Virus record (IMG/VR): IMGVR_UViG_2675903289_000014
Origin: a virus
Taxonomy: Duplodnaviria; Heunggongvirae; Uroviricota; Caudoviricetes
Length of the DNA stretch: 11,276 nt
Reading direction: 5' to 3' (one strand)
Below are positions 431-11,276 of this stretch, in pieces. The stretch's first letter is position 1. Every line of letters starts with the position of its first letter. A program made the position numbers and the translations under genes. The notes beneath the pieces are model-generated. The model was given only the letters and a program-made list of their open reading frames with translations, had not been told where the DNA came from and made no database searches.

Positions 431-772
431 NNNNNNNNNNNNNNNNNNNNNNNNNNNNNNNNNNNNNNNNNNNNNNNNNNNNNNNNNNNNNNNNNNNNNN
501 NNNNNNNNNNNNNNNNNNNNNNNNNNNNNNNNNNNNNNNNNNNNNNNNNNNNNNNNNNNNNNNNNNNNNNNNNNNNNNNNNNNNNNNNNNNNNNNNNNNN
601 NNNNNNNNNNNNNNNNNNNNNNNNNNNNNNNNNNNNNNNNNNNNNNNNNNNNNNNNNNNNNNNNNNNNNNNNNNNNNNNNNNNNNNNNNNNNNNNNNNNN
701 NNNNNNNNNNNNNNNNNNNNNNNNNNNNNNNNNNNNNNNNNNNNNNNNNNNNNNNNNNNNNNNNNNNNNNNN

Positions 773-1107: not shown

Positions 1108-1398
1108 TTAACTGTTTTTGCCTGGATACTGTCTTCGAGAATGCACAATATTTACTACTTCTATGCTTGATGCTGTTACTCGGTAAAGGATGATGTNNNN
1201 NNNNNNNNNNNNNNNNNNNNNNNNNNNNNNNNNNNNNNNNNNNNNNNNNNNNNNNNNNNNNNNNNNNNNNNGACGTGCGCCAGCTTCGGTTTTAAACGTT
1301 TTGCTTTTGGTATACGTCATGGCGGTGAATGTGCCGTCCTGGTTGGGGAACACGCCGTACACCAGAGATTCGTTGTTGCCAAGATCGATAGTATTCAT
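1108..1398 (-). CDS. hypothetical small protein (96 codons including 25 masked); N-terminus MNTIDLGNNESLVYGVFPNQDGTFTAMTYTKSKTFKTEAGAR; C-terminal 28 aa ParE/RelE-like (possibly chimeric or two adjacent genes)
   Basis: ATG at complement of 1396-1398 preceded by a G-rich stretch (aaggggaaatgggg); only this minus frame is open across 1272-1398. Visible C-terminus IILYRVTASSIEVVNIVHSRRQYPGKNS, stop TAA at complement of 1108-1110. An in-frame GTG at 1452 is an alternative start. Continuity across the 75-nt mask 1197-1271 is assumed, not seen. Confidence 0.4.
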   Translation of the reverse strand: MNTIDLGNNESLVYGVFPNQDGTFTAMTYTKSKTFKTEAGARXXXXXXXXXXXXXXXXXXXXXXXXXXIILYRVTASSIEVVNIVHSRRQYPGKNS

Positions 1399-1601: not shown

Positions 1602-1930
1602 TTATTTGTTTGCGCTTCTTTTGCGAGCTTTGAGTAGTTCTTCAAAAAGTTTGTTGAAATTTTCAACTCGAGCACGCATCTCTGACAACAGGGCCTTTTG
1701 CTCTGACTCAGGCAGTGCGTCGAACAGTTGAAGTAACTCTTTTTGATCTTCTGTCAGAATGGCTGGCTGATTATCCGGGATCGGTTCGCCTGGTTGTTTA
1801 TCTTCATCCCCAAAAAGAAGCCAAGTCGGTGAGCACTGAAGCGCTTGGCTCAGTGCGAATAATCTTTTCCCCGCCGGCTGTGTTTCATCTCTTTCCCATT
1901 GAGAAATTGTTACGTGAGCCACTTTGACCA
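1602..1930 (-). CDS. XRE/DicA-like helix-turn-helix transcriptional regulator, C-terminal 108 aa visible; N-terminus masked
   Basis: Minus frame ends TAA at complement of 1602-1604. Translation ...VAHVTISQWERDETQPAGKRLFALSQALQCSPTWLLFGDEDKQPGEPIPDNQPAILTEDQKELLQLFDALPESEQKALLSEMRARVENFNKLFEELLKARKRSANK has the second half of an XRE-type HTH (ISQWER...LSQAL) plus a C-terminal helical extension, as in DicA-type prophage repressors. Confidence 0.6.
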
Positions 1931-2734: not shown

Positions 2735-2775
2735 AAATCATCACGAGCAGATGGTAGCCATAAAACGGGTAACAT
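2735..2775 (-). CDS. parE: ParE-family toxin, N-terminal 13 codons visible (MLPVLWLPSARDD...); remainder masked
   Basis: ATG at complement of 2773-2775 overlaps the upstream antitoxin stop (TAATG), the classic toxin-antitoxin coupling. The N-terminal peptide fits the ParE/RelE N-terminal pattern. Gene length cannot be seen. Confidence 0.4.
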
Positions 2776-2969
2776 TATTCACCTCTGTGAGTTGCAGCAG
2801 CAATTTGGGCAATAATTTGTTCCATTTCCGCCATTACCTCATCATGCGGAATCGCCGGGCGGGGATCCGCGAGGCTTGCTGCTACTTTGGCCCGCAGCCA
2901 TTCGTTGTAACTATTTTCTTGCTCAACTGTCTCAAATTCTGAAACCATTGGGGAAAGGACTGTACTCAT
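2775..2969 (-). CDS. paaA: small PaaA-like antitoxin of a ParE-type three-component toxin-antitoxin system (64 aa)
   Basis: ATG at complement of 2967-2969 with SD GGAG about 9 nt upstream; stop TAA at complement of 2775-2777. Product MSTVLSPMVSEFETVEQENSYNEWLRAKVAASLADPRPAIPHDEVMAEMEQIIAQIAAATHRGE. It sits between the cI-like repressor and a ParE-like start, the organisation described for paaR-paaA-parE in E. coli O157 cryptic prophages. Identity to PaaA2 is from memory, not verified. Confidence 0.55.
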   Translation of the reverse strand: MSTVLSPMVSEFETVEQENSYNEWLRAKVAASLADPRPAIPHDEVMAEMEQIIAQIAAATHRGE

Positions 2970-2988
2970 TTTACATATCTCCTCTGAT

Positions 2989-3489
2989 TTAGGCGCGACG
3001 GCCTTTTTGTGCAGCTAACCACCGCGCAACCGTACGATCCATTGATTCTTTTTTATCTTTCATCTCCTGAAGCATGTGTTCTTGATCTTCTTTCGGAAAA
3101 GCTCTGAACGTATGGATTAAATCTCGTTCCATCGGCTCTACGGCAAACGGTAGTTCATCCTCTGTTTGTTCTGTGTCTGCTGGTAATGCGACTATGTTAT
3201 CTTGCTGTGGTTCTCGACAATACATCCTTGCAATTTGCAGCAAATCTACCATGTCTGGCCTGATTGACTCAGGGGGAACTTTCAGTAAGCCAGCAAACTT
3301 TAGAACAGCCTCAAGGTTTAGTGGGGTTTGACCATTTAGGTAGTGACTTACCGCCCCTTGTGTTGAAAACCCCATAATTTCCGCCGCACGTTCCTGAGTC
3401 AATCCCAACTGAGATTTCTTTGCCATCCAGATTTCTTTCAGTCTTCTGGCGGCGTTGAGGTCGGTGTCTGACAATGATTTTCTTTTCAT
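2989..3489 (-). CDS. paaR: lambda cI-like HTH repressor lacking a LexA-type S24 peptidase domain (166 aa); PaaR-like
   Basis: ATG at complement of 3487-3489 (alternative GTG at 3519); stop TAA at complement of 2989-2991. The N-terminus SDTDLNAARRLKEIWMAKKSQLGLTQERAAEIMGFSTQGAVSHYLNGQTPLNLEAVLKFAGLLKVPPESI parallels the lambda cI DNA-binding domain. The C-terminus is short and acidic with no Ser/Lys peptidase motifs. It is divergent from the Cro-like gene. Confidence 0.6.
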   Translation of the reverse strand: MKRKSLSDTDLNAARRLKEIWMAKKSQLGLTQERAAEIMGFSTQGAVSHYLNGQTPLNLEAVLKFAGLLKVPPESIRPDMVDLLQIARMYCREPQQDNIVALPADTEQTEDELPFAVEPMERDLIHTFRAFPKEDQEHMLQEMKDKKESMDRTVARWLAAQKGRRA

Positions 3490-3600
3490 ACATCCAATTC
3501 TAATAAGATTGCTAATCACTTTGAAATAGTATCACTATTTACTTTTAAAAATAACAGTGCTATTAATTATGCATTGGTAACACATCACATAGGGCGGATT
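3490..3600. promoter_or_regulatory. divergent promoter/operator region of the immunity switch
   Basis: AT-rich 111-bp spacer between divergent repressor and Cro-like genes. Contains the 15-bp palindrome aatagtatcactatt (3525-3539, perfect 6-bp arms) and TATCAC-type half-sites (aatcact 3514-3520, tatcact 3530-3536, catcaca 3583-3589). Candidate rightward promoter: -35 tttact 3538-3543, 17-bp spacer, -10 tattaa 3561-3566. Candidate leftward promoter: -35 TTCAAA (complement of 3520-3525) and -10 TAGAAT (complement of 3497-3502), only about 8 nt from the repressor ATG. Confidence 0.5.
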
Positions 3601-3864
3601 ATGAATCTTGGAGAATATTTGCATCATTTTCATATAACCCAGAGTTCATTTGCTGAGATTGTTGGCGCATCCCAAGGGATGGTCAGCCACGTTATAACGG
3701 GGCGTGCAAAACTTACAGGAGAAAAAATATTACGTTGGTGTGAAGCAACGGGATGGGTGGTGACCCCACATGAGATTGACAGTAAAACCTACCCCAACCC
3801 AACTGACGGCTTGCCTGCTGAGTTTCAGGCTAACACACAACCATCGGCGGGGGTTGATTCATGA
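3601..3864 (+). CDS. ydaS: Cro-like HTH protein (YdaS family), 87 aa
   Basis: ATG 3601 with SD agggcgg at 3591-3597; stop TGA 3862-3864. Product MNLGEYLHHFHITQSSFAEIVGASQGMVSHVITGRAKLTGEKILRWCEATGW... has an XRE-type HTH. Position and orientation match cro. A TTG at 3574 is an alternative start. Confidence 0.6.
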   Translation: MNLGEYLHHFHITQSSFAEIVGASQGMVSHVITGRAKLTGEKILRWCEATGWVVTPHEIDSKTYPNPTDGLPAEFQANTQPSAGVDS

Positions 3865-4286
3865 AAATCAAGCATGAACACATCCGCATGGCGATGAAAG
3901 CCTGGGCGCATCCGGACGGTGAAAAAGTTCCGGCAGCTGAAATAACCAGGGTTTATTTCGAACTGGGAATGACGTTTCCGGTTCTGCATAACGACAGCAA
4001 GCACAACACGCTTTATCTCAACACCCAAAAGATTTTCCGTTGGCTGGATAAAGACACCCCTGACGCTGTTGAAAAAATTCAGGCGTTGTTACCTGCGATC
4101 GAAAGGGCAATGCCACCTCCGCTGGTGGCTCGAATGCGCAGCCACAGTTCAGCTTATTTTCGGGAACTGGTGGAGACGCATGAACGACTGGTGAGAGACG
4201 CTGATGATTTTGTCGCAGTGGCAATCGCCGGTTTCAATCAGATGAACCGTGGTGGCCCGGCAGGAAATGCTGTGGCAGTACATTGA
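3861..4286 (+). CDS. ydaT: YdaT-family protein (CII-like functional position), 141 aa
   Basis: ATG 3861 overlaps the Cro-like stop (ATGA) with a G-run SD upstream; stop TGA 4284-4286. The N-terminus MKIKHEHI... and the position directly after ydaS match Rac/CP-933P YdaT as I recall it. Confidence 0.65.
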   Translation: MKIKHEHIRMAMKAWAHPDGEKVPAAEITRVYFELGMTFPVLHNDSKHNTLYLNTQKIFRWLDKDTPDAVEKIQALLPAIERAMPPPLVARMRSHSSAYFRELVETHERLVRDADDFVAVAIAGFNQMNRGGPAGNAVAVH

Positions 4287-4357
4287 CTGACAATAGCCAT
4301 ATCGAATCGCTCCCGGCAACTCGTGAGTAAAAAGATTCGGTATCAGAAGAGGTGAGT

Positions 4358-4681
4358 ATGGCTAACGCCTGGCTCAGATTATGGCATGACATGCCAAATG
4401 ACCCTAAGTGGCGAACAATTGCCAGGGTGTCAGGGCAGCCAATTGCAACAGTGATGGCAGTGTATATCCACCTCCTGGTGAGCGCGTCACGAAATGTCAC
4501 GCGAGGTCACATTGATGTCACGACAGAAGATTTGGCAAGTGCGCTCGACGTGACAGAAGAGGTAATTGATTCAATTTTGCAGACGATGCAGGGGCGGGTA
4601 CTTGATGGTGATTTAATCACTGGATGGGAAAAACGCCAGGTGCTTAAAGAGGACAACGGCAATATTTCGCAAACCGCAAAA
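4358..4681 (+). CDS. ydaU: YdaU-like (DUF1376) phage replication protein, N-terminal 108 aa visible; remainder masked
   Basis: ATG 4358 with SD GAGG at 4349-4352. Product MANAWLRLWHDMPNDPKWRTIARVSGQPIATVMAVYIHLLVSASRNVTRGHIDVTTEDLASALDV... The gene runs into the mask at 4682. Confidence 0.6.
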
Positions 4682-6138
4682 NNNNNNNNNNNNNNNNNNN
4701 NNNNNNNNNNNNNNNNNNNNNNNNNNNNNNNNNNNNNNNNNNNNNNNNNNNNNNNNNNNNNNNNNNNNNNNNNNNNNNNNNNNNNNNNNNNNNNNNNNNN
4801 NNNNNNNNNNNNNNNNNNNNNNNNNNNNNNNNNNNNNNNNNNNNNNNNNNNNNNNNNNNNNNNNNNNNNNNNNNNNNNNNNNNNNNNNNNNNNNNNNNNN
4901 NNNNNNNNNNNNNNNNNNNNNNNNNNNNNNNNNNNNNNNNNNNNNNNNNNNNNNNNNNNNNNNNNNNNNNNNNNNNNNNNNNNNNNNNNNNNNNNNNNNN
5001 NNNNNNNNNNNNNNNNNNNNNNNNNNNNNNNNNNNNNNNNNNNNNNNNNNNNNNNNNNNNNNNNNNNNNNNNNNNNNNNNNNNNNNNNNNNNNNNNNNNN
5101 NNNNNNNNNNNNNNNNNNNNNNNNNNNNNNNNNNNNNNNNNNNNNNNNNNNNNNNNNNNNNNNNNNNNNNNNNNNNNNNNNNNNNNNNNNNNNNNNNNNN
5201 NNNNNNNNNNNNNNNNNNNNNNNNNNNNNNNNNNNNNNNNNNNNNNNNNNNNNNNGTGTGNNNNNNNNNNNNNNNNNNNNNNNNNNNNNNNNNNNNNNNN
5301 NNNNNNNNNNNNNNNNNNNNNNNNNNNNNNNNNNNNNNNNNNNNNNNNNNNNNNNNNNNNNNNNNNNNNNNNNNNNNNNNNNNNNNNNNNNNNNNNNNNN
5401 NNNNNNNNNNNNNNNNNNNNNNNNNNNNNNNNNNNNNNNNNNNNNNNNNNNNNNNNNNNNNNNNNNNNNNNNNNNNNNNNNNNNNNNNNNNNNNNNNNNN
5501 NNNNNNNNNNNNNNNNNNNNNNNNNNNNNNNNNNNNNNNNNNNNNNNNNNNNNNNNNNNNNNNNNNNNNNNNNNNNNNNNNNNNNNNNNNNNNNNNNNNN
5601 NNNNNNNNNNNNNNNNNNNNNNNNNNNNNNNNNNNNNNNNNNNNNNNNNNNNNNNNNNNNNNNNNNNNNNNNNNNNNNNNNNNNNNNNNNNNNNNNNNNN
5701 NNNNNNNNNNNNNNNNNNNNNNNNNNNNNNNNNNNNNNNNNNNNNNNNNNNNNNNNNNNNNNNNNNNNNNNNNNNNNNNNNNNNNNNNNCGACGGGCAAA
5801 AATACGCGCTGAGCCNNNNNNNNNNNNNNNNNNNNNNNNNNNNNNNNNNNNNNNNNNNNNNNNNNNNNNNNNNNNNNNNNNNNNNNNNNNNNNNNNNNNN
5901 NNNNNNNNNNNNNNNNNNNNNNNNNNNNNNNNNNNNNNNNNNNNNNNNNNNNNNNNNNNNNNNNNNNNNNNNNNNNNNNNNNNNNNNNNNNNNNNNNNNN
6001 NNNNNNNNNNNNNNNNNNNNNNNNNNNNNNNNNNNNNNNNNNNNNNNNNNNNNNNNNNNNNNNNNNNNNNNNNNNNNNNNNNNNNNNNNNNNNNNNNNNN
6101 NNNNNNNNNNNNNNNNNNNNNNNNNNNNNNNNNNNNNN

Positions 6139-6237: not shown

Positions 6238-6327
6238 NNNNNNNNNNNNNNNNNNNNNNNNNNNNNNNNNNNNNNNNNNNNNNNNNNNNCGGGAGTTGTG
6301 AAGTAATTTTTGTTGGAGGATGTTTTA

Positions 6328-7053
6328 ATGGAAACTGTATTTGACGCACTGAAAGCACTGAAAAGAGCCTCTTCACATGTGGTGGCGTCCCGCCTTGGAA
6401 TCAGCCGTGAAGATGCGGTCAACGAACTGTGGAAACTGAAGCGCCGTGGTGAAGCGGATAACAAGGGTTCGATGTGGTGGCTGATTCAGGCTGGTGAAAG
6501 TGAACCAGTGTCACCGGTACCGAAAGTGACAGCGCAAATGCTGACTGAGGCGATTGAACAACATGGCCCACAAACGGCGGATGAGCTGGCACTGATGTTC
6601 GGGATTACCTCCCGCCGGGCGAATTCATCGCTGGCCATGGCAATCAGCAAAGGGCGTCTGATTCGCGTGAATCAGGGCGGTAAATTTCGGTACTGCATAC
6701 CGGGCGCTGATTTACCGGCAGAGCCGAAAGCCGCATCCATAGCGGAAACGGATGGTAAAGTCTTTCCTCAGCCAGCAGGTGTTGCGTTACCGGTACAGGA
6801 AGCTGCAACACAGGAAGAAATTAAAACAGAAACTGTGGCGGACATTGTGCAGTCGTTGCCATCGTTCACCGAAACGCAAGCGGATGACCTGGTTTTACCA
6901 TCGCTGCATATGGCAAACCGCGAACTGCGTCGGGCGAAAAGTCATGTCCAGAAGTGGGAGCGTGTCTGCGCCGCGTTGCGGGAGCTGAACAAGCACCGGG
7001 ATATTGTTCGACAGATTGTCGATTCCTCCGGTCGTATTGTGTCGGAAAAGTGA
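6328..7053 (+). CDS. uncharacterised protein with two tandem winged-helix-like repeats, a Pro/Ala/Glu/Thr-rich linker and a basic C-terminal helix (241 aa); possibly YdaW/DUF1627-like
   Basis: ATG 6328 with strong SD GGAGGA (6316-6321); stop TGA 7051-7053. Internal repeats [26 protein letters not shown] and [29 protein letters not shown]. Fully unmasked clean ORF. Confidence 0.7.
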
Positions 7054-8119: not shown

Positions 8120-10021
8120 ATGGCCCGCATGTTTGATACATTAGGATTTTACATTATGAATGTGCAACATTTTGATTTTTTTACAGATAATGAGTTTTCT
8201 AATCTGGAAAGATATCAAACTTGTAAAGCCATGGCCAAAGGTTATGCGGGCAATTACAAAACCGGGCAGTCAAGGTTGATGCATGCCCGCTCATACTGCT
8301 TCAGCATCGTAGCTGCATATTGGGATACCCTTGCAAAAAAGCAAAAAAGCAGCATTAAAATGAGGGCAGTACCGCACACTGTTTACATAGAAGACATTCC
8401 ATGTGATGCACGCGAGCTCGCTGAACGAACAGGTGAGCTTATTGCTCAATTTCCGGCGGAGGACGCTGGATATCTGATTGGGTCAATTTATACGGTAATG
8501 CTGCCATCCGCTTACCGTTCGGAATTGGGGGCTTACTATACCCCCCCACCTTTGGTAGCGCGTCTCTTGGACCTGGCTGAAAAGTCTGGTGTTGATTTTT
8601 CTCATGCATCGGTTATTGATCCTGCGTGTGGTGGCGGTGCATTTTTGGCACCAGTAGCCATTCGAATGTTAAAAAAAGACAAGGGGTCTTCCCCTGAATG
8701 GATGTTGAGGAGAATCAGTCGTCGTTTAAAGGGGATAGAGATCGATCCATTTGCGGCTTGGATGAGTTTGGTATTGCTCGAATCTGTACTAATGCCACTA
8801 TGTGTAAAGGTAAAACGTAGATTGCCTGAAGATACAATTATTGTTGCTGATGCGCTTCAGCAAGATAAATTTTCTGGTTATGATCTTGTGGTAGGGAATC
8901 CGCCTTACGGACGTGTCACTCTCGATATTAAAACGAGAGAAAAATATTCTCGTTCGTTATTTGGTCATGCAAATCTATATGGATTGTTCACCGACTTAGC
9001 TGTTCGCATGGTTAAAGAGAAAACAGGAGTTATTGCATTTCTTACGCCAACTTCTTTTCTTGGTGGGCAGTATTTCACCGCGCTGCGAACCCTTTTGACC
9101 GAAAAAACTACTCCNNNNNNNNNNNNNNNNNNNNNNNNNNNNNNNNNNNNNNNNNNNNNNNNNNNNNNNNNNNNNNNNNNNNNNNNNNNNNNNNNNNNNN
9201 NNNNNNNNNNNNNNNNNNNNNNNNNNNNNNNNNNNNNNNNNNNNNNNNNNNNNNNNNNNNNNNNNNNNNNNNNNNNNNNNNNNNNNNNNNNNNNNNNNNN
9301 NNNNNNNNNNNNNNNNNNNNNNNNNNNNNNNNNNNNNNNNNNNNNNNNNNNNNNNNNNNNNNNNNNNNNNNNNNNNNNNNNNNNNNNNNNNNNNNNNNNN
9401 NNNNNNNNNNNNNNNNNNNNNNNNNNNNNNNNNNNNNNNNNNNNNNNNNNNNNNNNNNNNNNNNNNNNNNNNNNNNNNNNNNNNNNNNNNNNNNNNNNNN
9501 NNNNNNNNNNNNNNNNNNNNNNNNNNNNNNNNNNNNNNNNNNNNNNNNNNNNNNNNNNNNNNNNNNNNNNNNNNNNNNNNNNNNNNNNNNNNNNNNNNNN
9601 NNNNNNNNNNNNNNNNNNNNNNNNNACAAAATCTGAATGTGTGCTTGTTCAGCGGACAACATCGAAGGAACAGGACAGAAGGATTTTAGCGGCAATTTTA
9701 CCTCAGGGATTTATAGNNNNNNNNNNNNNNNNNNNNNNNNNNNNNNNNNNNNNNNNNNNNNNNNNNNNNNNNNNNNNNNNNNNNNNNNNNNNNNNNNNNN
9801 NNNNNNNNNNNNNNNNNNNNNNNNNNNNNNNNNNNNNNNNNNNNNNNNNNNNNNNNNNNNNNNNNNNNNNNNNNNNNNNNNNNNNNNNNNNNNNNNNNNN
9901 NNNNNNNNNNNNNNNNNNNNNNNNNNNNNNNNNNNNNNNNNNNNNNNNNNNNNNNNNNNNNNNNNNNNNNNNNNNNNNNNNNNNNNNNNNNNCTGGTTTC
10001 TATGGAGTGATGATTGCATGA
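8120..10021 (+). CDS. gamma-class N6-adenine DNA methyltransferase, Eco57I/PstI-type (about 620-633 aa; target-recognition region largely masked)
   Basis: Motifs read directly: GAYYTPPPLVARLL (Eco57I-type motif X), VIDPACGGGAFL (AdoMet-binding motif I), VVGNPPYG (motif IV, NPPY indicates N6-adenine). Motif I precedes motif IV, the gamma arrangement. The frame is continuous through both masked blocks to TGA 10019-10021. Start is uncertain (ATG 8120, 8129 or 8156, none with a strong SD). Confidence 0.85.
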   Translation: MARMFDTLGFYIMNVQHFDFFTDNEFSNLERYQTCKAMAKGYAGNYKTGQSRLMHARSYCFSIVAAYWDTLAKKQKSSIKMRAVPHTVYIEDIPCDARELAERTGELIAQFPAEDAGYLIGSIYTVMLPSAYRSELGAYYTPPPLVARLLDLAEKSGVDFSHASVIDPACGGGAFLAPVAIRMLKKDKGSSPEWMLRRISRRLKGIEIDPFAAWMSLVLLESVLMPLCVKVKRRLPEDTIIVADALQQDKFSGYDLVVGNPPYGRVTLDIKTREKYSRSLFGHANLYGLFTDLAVRMVKEKTGVIAFLTPTSFLGGQYFTALRTLLTEKTTXXXXXXXXXXXXXXXXXXXXXXXXXXXXXXXXXXXXXXXXXXXXXXXXXXXXXXXXXXXXXXXXXXXXXXXXXXXXXXXXXXXXXXXXXXXXXXXXXXXXXXXXXXXXXXXXXXXXXXXXXXXXXXXXXXXXXXXXXXXXXXXXXXXXXXXXXXXXXXXXXXXXXXXXXXXTKSECVLVQRTTSKEQDRRILAAILPQGFIXXXXXXXXXXXXXXXXXXXXXXXXXXXXXXXXXXXXXXXXXXXXXXXXXXXXXXXXXXXXXXXXXXXXXXXXXXXXXXXXXXXXXXXXXXXXXGFYGVMIA

Positions 10022-11100
10022 ATCTGCCTGTTGTTCCCCCATTGAATGTTATCCGGGAAAGATTACAATTAATTTTCCCTGAAGGGACTGAGAATCGTGG
10101 ATATTTAATTCGGGAAATAGCTGCAAAAACAATTTTTGTCATGTTTTATGCTGGTGCGGTTGAGGGGCTGGGGCGATGGATAAGGCCCAGCCAGGTTGTA
10201 AGTATGGGAGATTCGCAGGCTGCTCTTACTGATGATGCGTCCAGAGAAAGCTGGGTAAAGATGACTTTCTCTAAACAAAAGATAAGGCCTGCTGATGCAT
10301 GGTATGCGGAAAATACGCGTGAGCCAATACGTGATGAAACTATAAAAAATGGCCTAATACCTTGCAATGCAATTGTTGAGCGTAAAGGTATACCCACCAC
10401 ATCCTCTCGTCCTCGTTACAGTTTGAATCGCTCTTTTGCAGCACTCTTTGATGCCGGGCTTGAAGGAGATTCGCTGCTGAGTGCAATAAGTTCCTGGCAA
10501 GAAAATCATTTGAACAAAGCCGCTCTTGCTAGGTTGCGTTTATTGAAATCAGGGGCAGTGATTGCTGCTGATGCCGTAGTCGTCACTTTCCCAAATGGAG
10601 AGAAGAGAACTTTAGCTCCGGGCCCGTCAAGTACAATAGCTAAGGCCGTCATCGAAGTTTTTGCTCCTAATTTTCTTAAGAATCCAACTGTGCTCTGGTT
10701 GTCTGAATCCGGGAATAAAGTTGTTGCTCAGGATGATGTATTGGCAAAAGCATTGGGGCTGAATATTGATGCCTCAAAAGCACTTCCAGATATTATTTTG
10801 ATTGATTTGGGAGAGGACCGAACGGGTTCGGACATGCTTGTAGTTTTCACTGAAGTAGTTGCGACAGATGGGCCTATAAACAGGGAACGAAAAGTTACTC
10901 TCACTCATTTGGCTATTGACGCTGGGTTCAGCGAGAAAAATCTTGCATTCCTTACGGCATTTATGGACAGAAGTGCTCTGCCTTTTAAAAAGGCAATACC
11001 AGAATTGGCGTGGGGATCTTATGCATGGTTTGCTTCTGAACCGGAGCACTTAATTGATCTTCGGGATGGTTATCCGGTAAAGATCAGCCAGAGAAAATGA
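10018..11100 (+). CDS. putative type II restriction endonuclease, BsuBI/PstI-like (360 aa)
   Basis: ATG 10018 overlaps the methyltransferase stop (ATGA) with GGAG about 10 nt upstream; stop TGA 11098-11100. The C-terminal region has a PD...E-type nuclease-like segment (LPDIILIDLGEDRTGSDMLVVFTEVVATDG). Family assignment rests on context (partner of an Eco57I/PstI-type methyltransferase) and size, not on a verified alignment. Confidence 0.7.
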   Translation: MNLPVVPPLNVIRERLQLIFPEGTENRGYLIREIAAKTIFVMFYAGAVEGLGRWIRPSQVVSMGDSQAALTDDASRESWVKMTFSKQKIRPADAWYAENTREPIRDETIKNGLIPCNAIVERKGIPTTSSRPRYSLNRSFAALFDAGLEGDSLLSAISSWQENHLNKAALARLRLLKSGAVIAADAVVVTFPNGEKRTLAPGPSSTIAKAVIEVFAPNFLKNPTVLWLSESGNKVVAQDDVLAKALGLNIDASKALPDIILIDLGEDRTGSDMLVVFTEVVATDGPINRERKVTLTHLAIDAGFSEKNLAFLTAFMDRSALPFKKAIPELAWGSYAWFASEPEHLIDLRDGYPVKISQRK

Positions 11101-11140: not shown

Positions 11141-11276
11141 TTACGGTGCACTGGATAAAAAATCGGTTTCATAGATTTGCCCACCGTGGTATACGCCTGC
11201 GATAAAAACTTTATTGTCATCAACGGCAAAAGCAATAATTGTTCTGTGGCGGGGTGATGCTGCCAACTTACTGATT
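11141..11276 (-). CDS. C-terminal 44 codons of a convergent gene, RelE/YoeB-like toxin tail (5' end beyond window)
   Basis: Minus frame open from the window edge to TAA at complement of 11141-11143; translation ...ISKLAASPRHRTIIAFAVDDNKVFIAGVYHGGQIYETDFLSSAP. The HR-(I/V)-x-A...DD...IA..YH pattern resembles RelE/YoeB-superfamily C-termini. Low-confidence family call from a fragment. Confidence 0.3.
   Translation of the reverse strand, partial: ISKLAASPRHRTIIAFAVDDNKVFIAGVYHGGQIYETDFLSSAP

Follow-up and report, generated by a model that had tools for sequence, protein, structure and literature searches.

A repressor-antitoxin-toxin operon of the paaR-paaA-parE type in the probable immunity region of a Shigella sonnei-type lambdoid prophage

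We analysed an 11,276-nt stretch of tailed-phage DNA (Caudoviricetes; IMG/VR record IMGVR_UViG_2675903289_000014), referred to here as the window, in which a repressor gene is followed by toxin-antitoxin (TA) genes at positions 2735-3600. We conclude, with a probability of roughly 0.85, that this region is a lambdoid prophage immunity region of the Shigella sonnei/Escherichia coli type, built like those of the O157:H7 prophages CP-933P and CP-933M. The gene order, the spacings, the domain families, the operator repeats, and the YdaT site are seen in the sequence itself, while co-transcription of the genes, control by the repressor, and toxicity and neutralisation of ParE are probable for the present copy by analogy with its homologues. 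The reference loci were taken from the Sakai genome, where prophage Sp12 (= CP-933P) supplies PaaR2 (123 aa), PaaA2, ParE2, YdaS, and YdaT, and prophage Sp4 (= CP-933M, ECs_1069-1067) supplies PaaR1 (133 aa), PaaA1, and ParE1. The Sp12 intergenic region measures 97 bp in this genome, as published.

A 166-aa repressor of the PaaR type, a 64-aa antitoxin of the PaaA type, and the start of parE lie in line on the minus strand, and a ydaS-ydaT pair diverges from them; this arrangement, which a first, sequence-only reading of the window had described, can all be read in the sequence. The repressor gene runs from an ATG at 3489 to 2989, with its stop codon at 2989-2991. The spacer between repressor and antitoxin, ATCAGAGGAGATATGTAAA (2970-2988, minus strand), has a GAGGAG Shine-Dalgarno sequence inside it and is 19 nt long, not 17 nt as first reported. 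The antitoxin gene extends from 2969 to 2775, and the TAATG overlap reported between antitoxin and toxin is present at 2773-2777 (minus strand), where the antitoxin TAA and the next ATG have 1 nt in common and a GAGGTGA ribosome-binding site lies ahead. The toxin gene is readable in the window for 13 codons at its 5' end (2735-2775, minus strand; translation MLPVLWLPSARDD), and a run of N at 1931-2734 then sets in 41 nt inside this third gene of the operon. A scan of the minus strand from 2735 to 3489 found no terminator-like sites. The divergent pair begins 111 nt from the repressor ATG, and it consists of a ydaS-like gene (3601-3864, plus strand) for an 87-aa helix-turn-helix (HTH) protein, the Cro analogue, and a ydaT-like gene (3861-4286, plus strand) for a 141-aa protein, the CII analogue. 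A mechanical list of open reading frames starts the repressor at GTG 3519. This start was rejected, since the -10 hexamer of the promoter described below would fall inside the gene; it is also opposed by the annotation of ATG 3489 in relatives and by the alignment with lambda cI, which begins at residue 2.

The protein matches support the suggested likeness of this operon to paaR-paaA-parE, with an antitoxin of the PaaA2 family, toxin codons that match an intact ParE, and a repressor C-terminus homologous to PaaR. The antitoxin matches Pfam PF21217 (PaaA2, the "stability determinant" family) with an E-value of 3e-23 (81.9 bits, where the cut-off is 27), the NCBIfam RelB-family antitoxin equivalog (E 3e-27), and the PaaA2 structures 3ZBE/5CW7 in the PDB (E 1.4e-23), and the Pfam and PDB searches reveal no DNA-binding domain in it. 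Its identity is 77% to PaaA1 over the full length, including the MAEME..IAQIA tail, and 75% to PaaA2 over the first 56 aa; from its type of tail, a specificity like that of PaaA1 is predicted. The best 120 matches in a homologue search are all of the PaaA1-tail type, and PaaA2 itself is not among them. The antitoxin's own 100%-identical sequence, WP_005142544, which occurs in thousands of genomes, is missing among the matches listed, the top one being 88% identical. The 13 visible toxin codons and the underlying DNA are 100% identical to S. sonnei loci with an intact 96-aa ParE, and this S. sonnei allele belongs to PF05016, matches ParE2 in PDB 5CW7 with an E-value of 7e-37, and is 86% identical to ParE1 and 67% identical to ParE2. 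The earlier description of the third reading frame as ParE-like stands for the visible codons; the simple continuation under the mask that it assumed is in doubt, as the ends of parE lie 1.5 kb apart in the window, with foreign DNA in between.

The two halves of the repressor have different relatives. The N-terminal HTH, which is matched by Pfam HTH_3, aligns with the N-terminal domain of lambda cI over residues 2-81 (E 3e-9, phmmer against the PDB), and the phmmer alignments with 1LMB, 1RIO, and 3BDN cover residues 2-90 with E-values of 3e-9 to 1e-8. This HTH is not homologous to PaaR1 or PaaR2; the repressor has no sequence match to any solved PaaR2 structure and matches only lambda cI in the PDB. 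At the other end, residues 106-162 fit the NCBIfam DicA profile, and the C-terminal ~60 aa are common to PaaR1, PaaR2, and DicA, with an identity of 56% to PaaR1 over the last 64 aa (residues 103-166) and of 52% to PaaR2 over residues 123-166. The name PaaR-like thus applies to the C-terminal part, which is homologous, and not to the DNA-binding half, which is no orthologue of PaaR1 or PaaR2. Neither Pfam nor NCBIfam finds a Peptidase_S24 domain in the 166-aa protein, and the alignment with full-length cI ends at residue ~90. Because the repressor is without this autocleavage domain, induction through SOS/RecA is not expected. The YdaS-like protein matches Pfam HTH_3 below the cut-off and PHROG 35 (transcriptional repressor) with an E-value of 8e-17, and it shares 36% identity with Sp4 YdaS and no similarity with Sp12 YdaS. 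The YdaT-like protein matches PF06254 (E 5e-9) and PHROG 163 (CII-like activator; E 3e-40), and its identities to Sp4 YdaT and Sp12 YdaT are 81% and 77%, respectively.

The sequence between the divergent genes has the appearance of an OR-like control region (3490-3600). It contains three operators of the form AATAR-N5-CTAWT, at 3502-3516, 3525-3539, and 3550-3564, with a centre-to-centre spacing of 23 and 25 bp. Against an expectation of 0.04, these three sites are the only ones in the window, and none of 200 shuffled sequences reaches their number. Relatives keep the operator half-sites unchanged, with variation in the central five bases. The promoter scan predicts a PRM-like promoter on the minus strand, with a -35 hexamer TTCAAA (3525..3520) and a -10 hexamer TAGAAT (3502..3497) at 17-nt spacing; one operator lies between these hexamers, and the next abuts the -35. 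Because the PRM-like -10 stops 8 nt before the ATG, a leaderless repressor mRNA is predicted, and a leaderless start has been shown for paaR2 and lambda cI (PMC8630535). A candidate PR on the plus strand (TTTACT at 3538-3543 and TATTAA at 3561-3566) was read by eye and not called by the promoter scan, and the third operator overlaps it.

Two further regulatory elements resemble those of the O157 systems. A putative YdaT operator, OM (TTGATTCATGAAAATCAA; 3854-3871, plus strand), has the form TTGATT-N6-AATCAA without a mismatch and spans the ydaS stop and the ydaT start; the same site was footprinted at the same position, the end of ydaS, in CP-933P (PMC9986795). On the far side of the operon, an unmasked relative that is 100% identical to the window (L026) has two further operators in the spacer between parE and ydfA, at 895-909 and 922-936, and these AATAR-N5-YTAWT sites are the only other copies of the motif in its 5.9-kb locus. 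The parE-ydfA spacer of the window is covered by a mask (871-1079), at a place where relatives carry these OL-analogue operators. The spacer operators probably form an OL-like set ahead of the leftward genes ydfA-ydfB-ydfC-dicB and would be the counterpart of OL/PL933P in CP-933P.

The mechanism that we propose is drawn by homology from experiments on the O157 systems. The leftward operon would encode the CI-analogue repressor (R), then the PaaA antitoxin, which lacks a DNA-binding domain, and then the ParE-family toxin. R would occupy the three operators located between the two divergent promoters, the one for R itself and the rightward one, repress ydaS-ydaT, the genes for the Cro and CII analogues, and regulate its own leaderless transcript, and the TA pair would therefore be made only on the lysogenic (repressor) transcript. 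YdaS would compete at the same operators and turn the operon off, and YdaT would bind TTGATT-N6-AATCAA at the ydaS/ydaT junction, giving rise to an alternative, PRE-like leftward transcript. PaaA, presumed to be labile, would sequester ParE, and the immunity region would become addictive, because loss of the locus would then free ParE. The basis for these steps in the homologues is provided by Hallez 2010, as far as it is recounted in the review PMC4803016, by Jurenas 2021 (PMC8630535), and by PMC9986795. The O157 homologues are co-transcribed from a promoter upstream of paaR, according to PMC4803016 and PMC8630535. Repression by R, neutralisation of ParE by its cognate PaaA, and plasmid stabilisation are documented for the O157 homologues only (PMC8630535; Hallez 2010, as recounted in PMC4803016).

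Several observations weigh against the assignment of this region to the CP-933P/CP-933M type of immunity region. The promoters are only consensus-level matches, and the sites called by the scan are no more numerous than in shuffled sequences. The DNA-binding domain of R, YdaS, and the operators are unlike those of both characterised systems, and the order of binding, activation, and bistability would be extrapolations from them. The CP-933P operator half-site, GTTTAGTAA, is missing here, being absent from the window and from E. coli 90-3040; this absence is to be expected, because the locus appears to be a heteroimmune variant. Finally, an intact toxin gene is not demonstrable in the window, where ~1.4 kb of additional sequence, part of it foreign, lies between the ends of parE.

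The coupling of immunity and toxin would be lost if paaA-parE were an autonomous two-gene TA system with its own promoter that happens to stand beside the repressor gene. Canonical type II TA systems are indeed autoregulated two-gene operons, and the O157 PaaA-ParE pair is reported to repress its promoter partially by itself (PMC4803016). However, the gap ahead of the antitoxin gene is just 19 nt and holds only the ribosome-binding site, the antitoxin is without any DNA-binding domain, and the homologues are co-transcribed from the promoter upstream of paaR (PMC4803016; PMC8630535). An internal promoter for paaA-parE was considered and rejected: the only candidate is one weak promoter-like match within the repressor coding sequence (3402..3374), and the count of such matches is not above that in shuffled sequences. 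The R C-terminal domain, paaA, and parE are also inherited as one block across three immunity types, and we consider an autonomous TA pair very improbable. Still less credible is the idea that ydaS-ydaT is itself the TA pair, as the Pfam names YdaS_toxin and YdaT_toxin imply. The 141-aa protein is matched by PF06254, "Bacterial toxin ydaT", and earlier papers on the Rac prophage named YdaS and YdaT toxins, but Jurenas 2021 saw no toxicity of YdaT and showed that it functions as a regulator (PMC8630535). Moreover, the structure and the operator of YdaT are known (PMC9986795), this operator is present at 3854-3871, and PHROG 163 is a family of CII-like activators; the operator and the PHROG 163 assignment fit a regulator role for YdaT.

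The state of the toxin gene is complicated by a displaced 3' end. A stretch at 1108-1196 on the minus strand covers codons 68-96 of parE and the stop codon (translation IILYRVTASSIEVVNIVHSRRQYPGKNS, followed by the stop), the last 28 codons and the stop lying at 1108-1194; it is of the same allele and 100% identical to the S. sonnei gene, and window 1108-1196 is 100% identical to positions 6917-7005 of a related locus (L007). The 5' piece (2735-2775) and this 3' piece are 1,538 nt apart, compared with 161 nt in 29 of 29 relatives. Between them lies a 659-nt foreign island on the minus strand (1272-1930), which derives from another lambdoid immunity region and encodes a DicA-like repressor over its last 108 aa (1602-1928, minus strand; NCBIfam DicA, E 1e-58) as well as the beginning of a ydfA-like DUF1391 gene (1398-1272, minus strand). 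The N-run at 1931-2734 hides parE beyond codon 13 as well as the first ~27 codons of the dicA-like gene. In E. coli FDAARGOS_943, the island has a 99.7%-identical counterpart opposite a cro/ydaT pair of its own; it is also 100% identical to an IMG/VR locus (L040), where it is flanked by insertion sequences (IS) and belongs to a different prophage remnant of Shigella-type genomes. The window has two DUF1391 (ydfA-like) starts, one in the resident prophage (773-818) and one in the island (1272-1398), with 92.7% DNA identity. Gapped patterns for the parE-3'/ydfA' junction found no match in IMG/VR or in the JGI metagenomes, and parE-3' joined to the island piece occurs in none of 5,426 complete E. 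coli genomes.

The masks themselves bear on how this displacement should be read. Ten N-runs interrupt the ~11 kb of the window (431-772, 871-1079, 1197-1271, 1931-2734, 4682-5255, 5261-5789, 5816-6138, 6238-6289, 9115-9625, and 9717-9992), leaving islands of only 5 nt and 26 nt between some of them. Their lengths depart from those in relatives (342 vs 216, 209 vs ~199, 52 vs 26, 511 vs 457, and 276 vs 261 nt), and the runs around the 26-nt island at 5790-5815 differ by +122 and -17 nt. The use of N-run lengths as a ruler was rejected, as no mask has the length seen in any relative, the deviations going both ways (+126 to -17). Because these lengths are unfaithful, the geometry under the masks and the distances across them are unreliable.

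We see an even chance that the real locus is the ordinary intact S. sonnei operon and that assembly, scaffolding, or masking has produced the displaced parE end and the dicA-like island. In favour of this, the unmasked segments all match S. sonnei loci at 99.9-100% identity, the window ends coincide with IS1-bounded contig ends of short-read assemblies, ten N-runs, of lengths that fit no known genome, interrupt 11 kb and leave islands of 5 nt and 26 nt, and a ydfA stretch in the island is 92.7% identical to one in the gene that truly adjoins parE; on the other side, a true gap of 161 nt would be hard to mis-scaffold with a 659-nt foreign contig. A more doubtful explanation is that the toxin is broken in the source genome, an insertion of or rearrangement with a foreign immunity fragment having split parE between codons 14 and 67. 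The locus would then encode a repressor and an orphan antitoxin, a decayed TA system without addiction. The presence of both parE ends at a distance of 1,538 nt instead of the 161 nt seen in 29 relatives is consistent with such a break, as is the 100% identity of the island to a segment of the IS-flanked remnant in Shigella-type genomes. Genomes 2690316210 and 2713897141 hold both elements on separate contigs, so that donor DNA would be available in such genomes. Nevertheless, the N-run lengths are off in both directions (+126, +10, +26, +54, +15, +122, and -17), the junction is found neither in the 5,426 complete E. coli genomes nor in IMG/VR and the JGI metagenomes, S. sonnei is clonal and parE is intact in every other copy, and a chimeric scaffold or an intact parE with a duplicated 3' remnant would look alike. 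The latter possibility, in which parE is intact and its 3' remnant is duplicated, takes up the probability that the artefact and the disruption leave over.

The gene order and the spacing logic of the operon are like those of CP-933M/Sp4 (paaR1-paaA1-parE1; Hallez 2010), to which ParE (S. sonnei allele), PaaA, YdaT, and the C-terminus of R show the identities given above, and both loci have ydfA-ydfB-ydfC-dicB downstream. Nucleotide similarity to Sp4 is continuous from the ydfA side across parE and paaA into the last ~130 nt of the R gene. None is left from ~3117 to ~3789 of the window, after which it reappears at the end of ydaS and covers ydaT. The two loci differ in the repressor, which has 133 aa and another HTH in Sp4 and 166 aa with a lambda-cI-like N-terminal domain here, in YdaS, which is just 36% identical, and in the intergenic operators, which are unrelated. 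CP-933P/Sp12 (PMC8630535; 3ZBE, 5CW7) likewise has a leftward three-gene operon with divergent Cro and CII analogues, a peptidase-less repressor, a leaderless repressor start, as is predicted here, a YdaT operator at the ydaS/ydaT junction, and OL-like operators past parE, and its PaaA (75% over 56 aa), ParE (67%), and YdaT (77%) are all recognisably related. In contrast, the alignment of R with PaaR2 is confined to the last 44 aa, YdaS is unrelated, the antitoxin C-terminal tail is of another type, the intergenic region is 97 bp there and 111 bp here, and the GTTTAGTAA repeats of Sp12 stand against three 15-bp AATAR-N5-CTAWT operators in the window.

The likeness to lambda cI-rexA-rexB lies in the N-terminal domain of R, which is homologous to the cI DNA-binding domain (E 3e-9), in three operators 23-25 bp apart over divergent promoters with a second set at the far side of the operon, and in accessory genes that are co-transcribed with the repressor in the lysogen, as would also be the case here. 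The present locus differs from lambda in that it has no S24 autocleavage domain, a ParE-type TA pair replaces RexAB, and YdaS and YdaT are the Cro and CII analogues. Rac RacR-YdaS-YdaT and Qin DicA-DicC of K-12 also have short peptidase-less HTH repressors that face ydaS/ydaT- or cro-type genes, the R C-terminus fits the DicA family profile, and ydfABC-dicB lies downstream; unlike R, however, RacR and DicA have no TA genes following them. The separation of DNA binding and toxin neutralisation on different polypeptides is shared with the tripartite type II TA systems omega-epsilon-zeta and pasABC (PMC3141249), with the difference that the regulator here is the prophage's own immunity repressor and not a dedicated TA regulator.

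In the collection, ~6,000 indexed sample blocks contain this very repressor protein, and the complete genomes among the matches listed are S. sonnei, for example 53G (HE616528). A contig scan with the repressor as query gave no relative, and the source is therefore no GTDB species representative. Wherever the window is unmasked, it matches S. sonnei loci and IMG/VR prophage contigs at 99.9-100% identity, and an intact R-PaaA-ParE module with a 96-aa ParE is present in all 29 S. sonnei-type loci that were fetched. The block formed by parE, paaA, and the C-terminal domain of R matches 842 of 5,426 complete E. coli genomes, about one in six. The closest complete copies labelled E. coli are FDAARGOS_944 (99.8% over this block) and RMDEC465 (94.6% over 2735-4681), in which the setting is a lambdoid prophage with integrase, exonuclease, dicB, and ydfABC on the left and replication genes on the right. 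Escherichia phage Evi (LR597642) carries a module of the PaaR2 type, and downstream of its PaaA2 (L057, 1163-1445) there is an intact ParE2 reading frame that is unannotated in the deposited record. A sister prophage in FDAARGOS_943 (L056, 1.58-1.60 Mb) has the same replication, restriction-modification, and ydfABC/dicB backbone with a LexA-family repressor and no TA genes, and it illustrates cassette exchange. No TA genes follow the DicA-like repressor in FDAARGOS_943 or the LexA-family repressor of the sister prophage. Because prophages with a sister backbone and DicA-like or LexA-family repressors are without TA genes, the TA pair appears to be optional and to travel with the PaaR-type C-terminal domain.

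Other genes in the window were observed in passing. The prophage encodes a type II restriction-modification pair, an N6_Mtase/Eco57I-type methyltransferase (8120-10021) and a BsuBI/PstI-family endonuclease (10018-11100), which is found at an identity of at least 99% in only two of 5,426 complete E. coli genomes. At the right end, a minus-strand reading frame that runs off the window (11141-11266) encodes the C-terminal part of a second, unrelated toxin of the RelE/ParE family, which in relatives is paired with a ParD-family antitoxin just past the window (L001 9322-9884; L056 12173-12747).

The arrangement and its regulatory meaning are already published (Hallez 2010; PMC8630535), and the locus is no new kind of system; the first reading was right to suspect known biology, as the coupling of immunity and TA has been shown for CP-933P (PMC8630535). 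Judged by its sequence, it is the same kind of locus, a PaaA1/ParE1-like TA pair with a swapped specificity cassette. This cassette of ~670 nt (~3117-3789), which comprises the R N-terminal domain, the operators, and most of ydaS, is unrelated to the O157 loci, whereas the C-terminal domain of R is shared with them, as are PaaA, ParE, and YdaT. On these grounds, the present copy is a third specificity type with a predicted immunity specificity of its own. We tentatively propose, as a conjecture more likely to fail than to hold, that the immunity region is a modular scaffold in which three or more exchanges of the ~670-bp cassette (Sp12, Sp4, and the S. sonnei type) have left both flanks conserved: the left flank contains the R C-terminal domain together with paaA and parE, and the right flank the ydaS 3' end, the YdaT operator, and ydaT. 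Such a pattern is what the hypothesis of Jurenas et al. predicts, according to which the TA pair guards the immunity region against replacement (PMC8630535), as only swaps that keep the TA genes would survive. If this is true, the breakpoints, one of them within paaR and the other at the YdaT operator, would be recombination joints favoured by selection, and the dicA-like fragment between the parE ends could be a failed or toxin-inactivating swap. The mapped swap boundaries are a modest addition that bears on this idea. The coupling of immunity to a ParE-type TA pair is not peculiar to the two O157 prophages, and the present copy supplies natural heteroimmune variants for asking whether the TA pair stabilises the immunity region.

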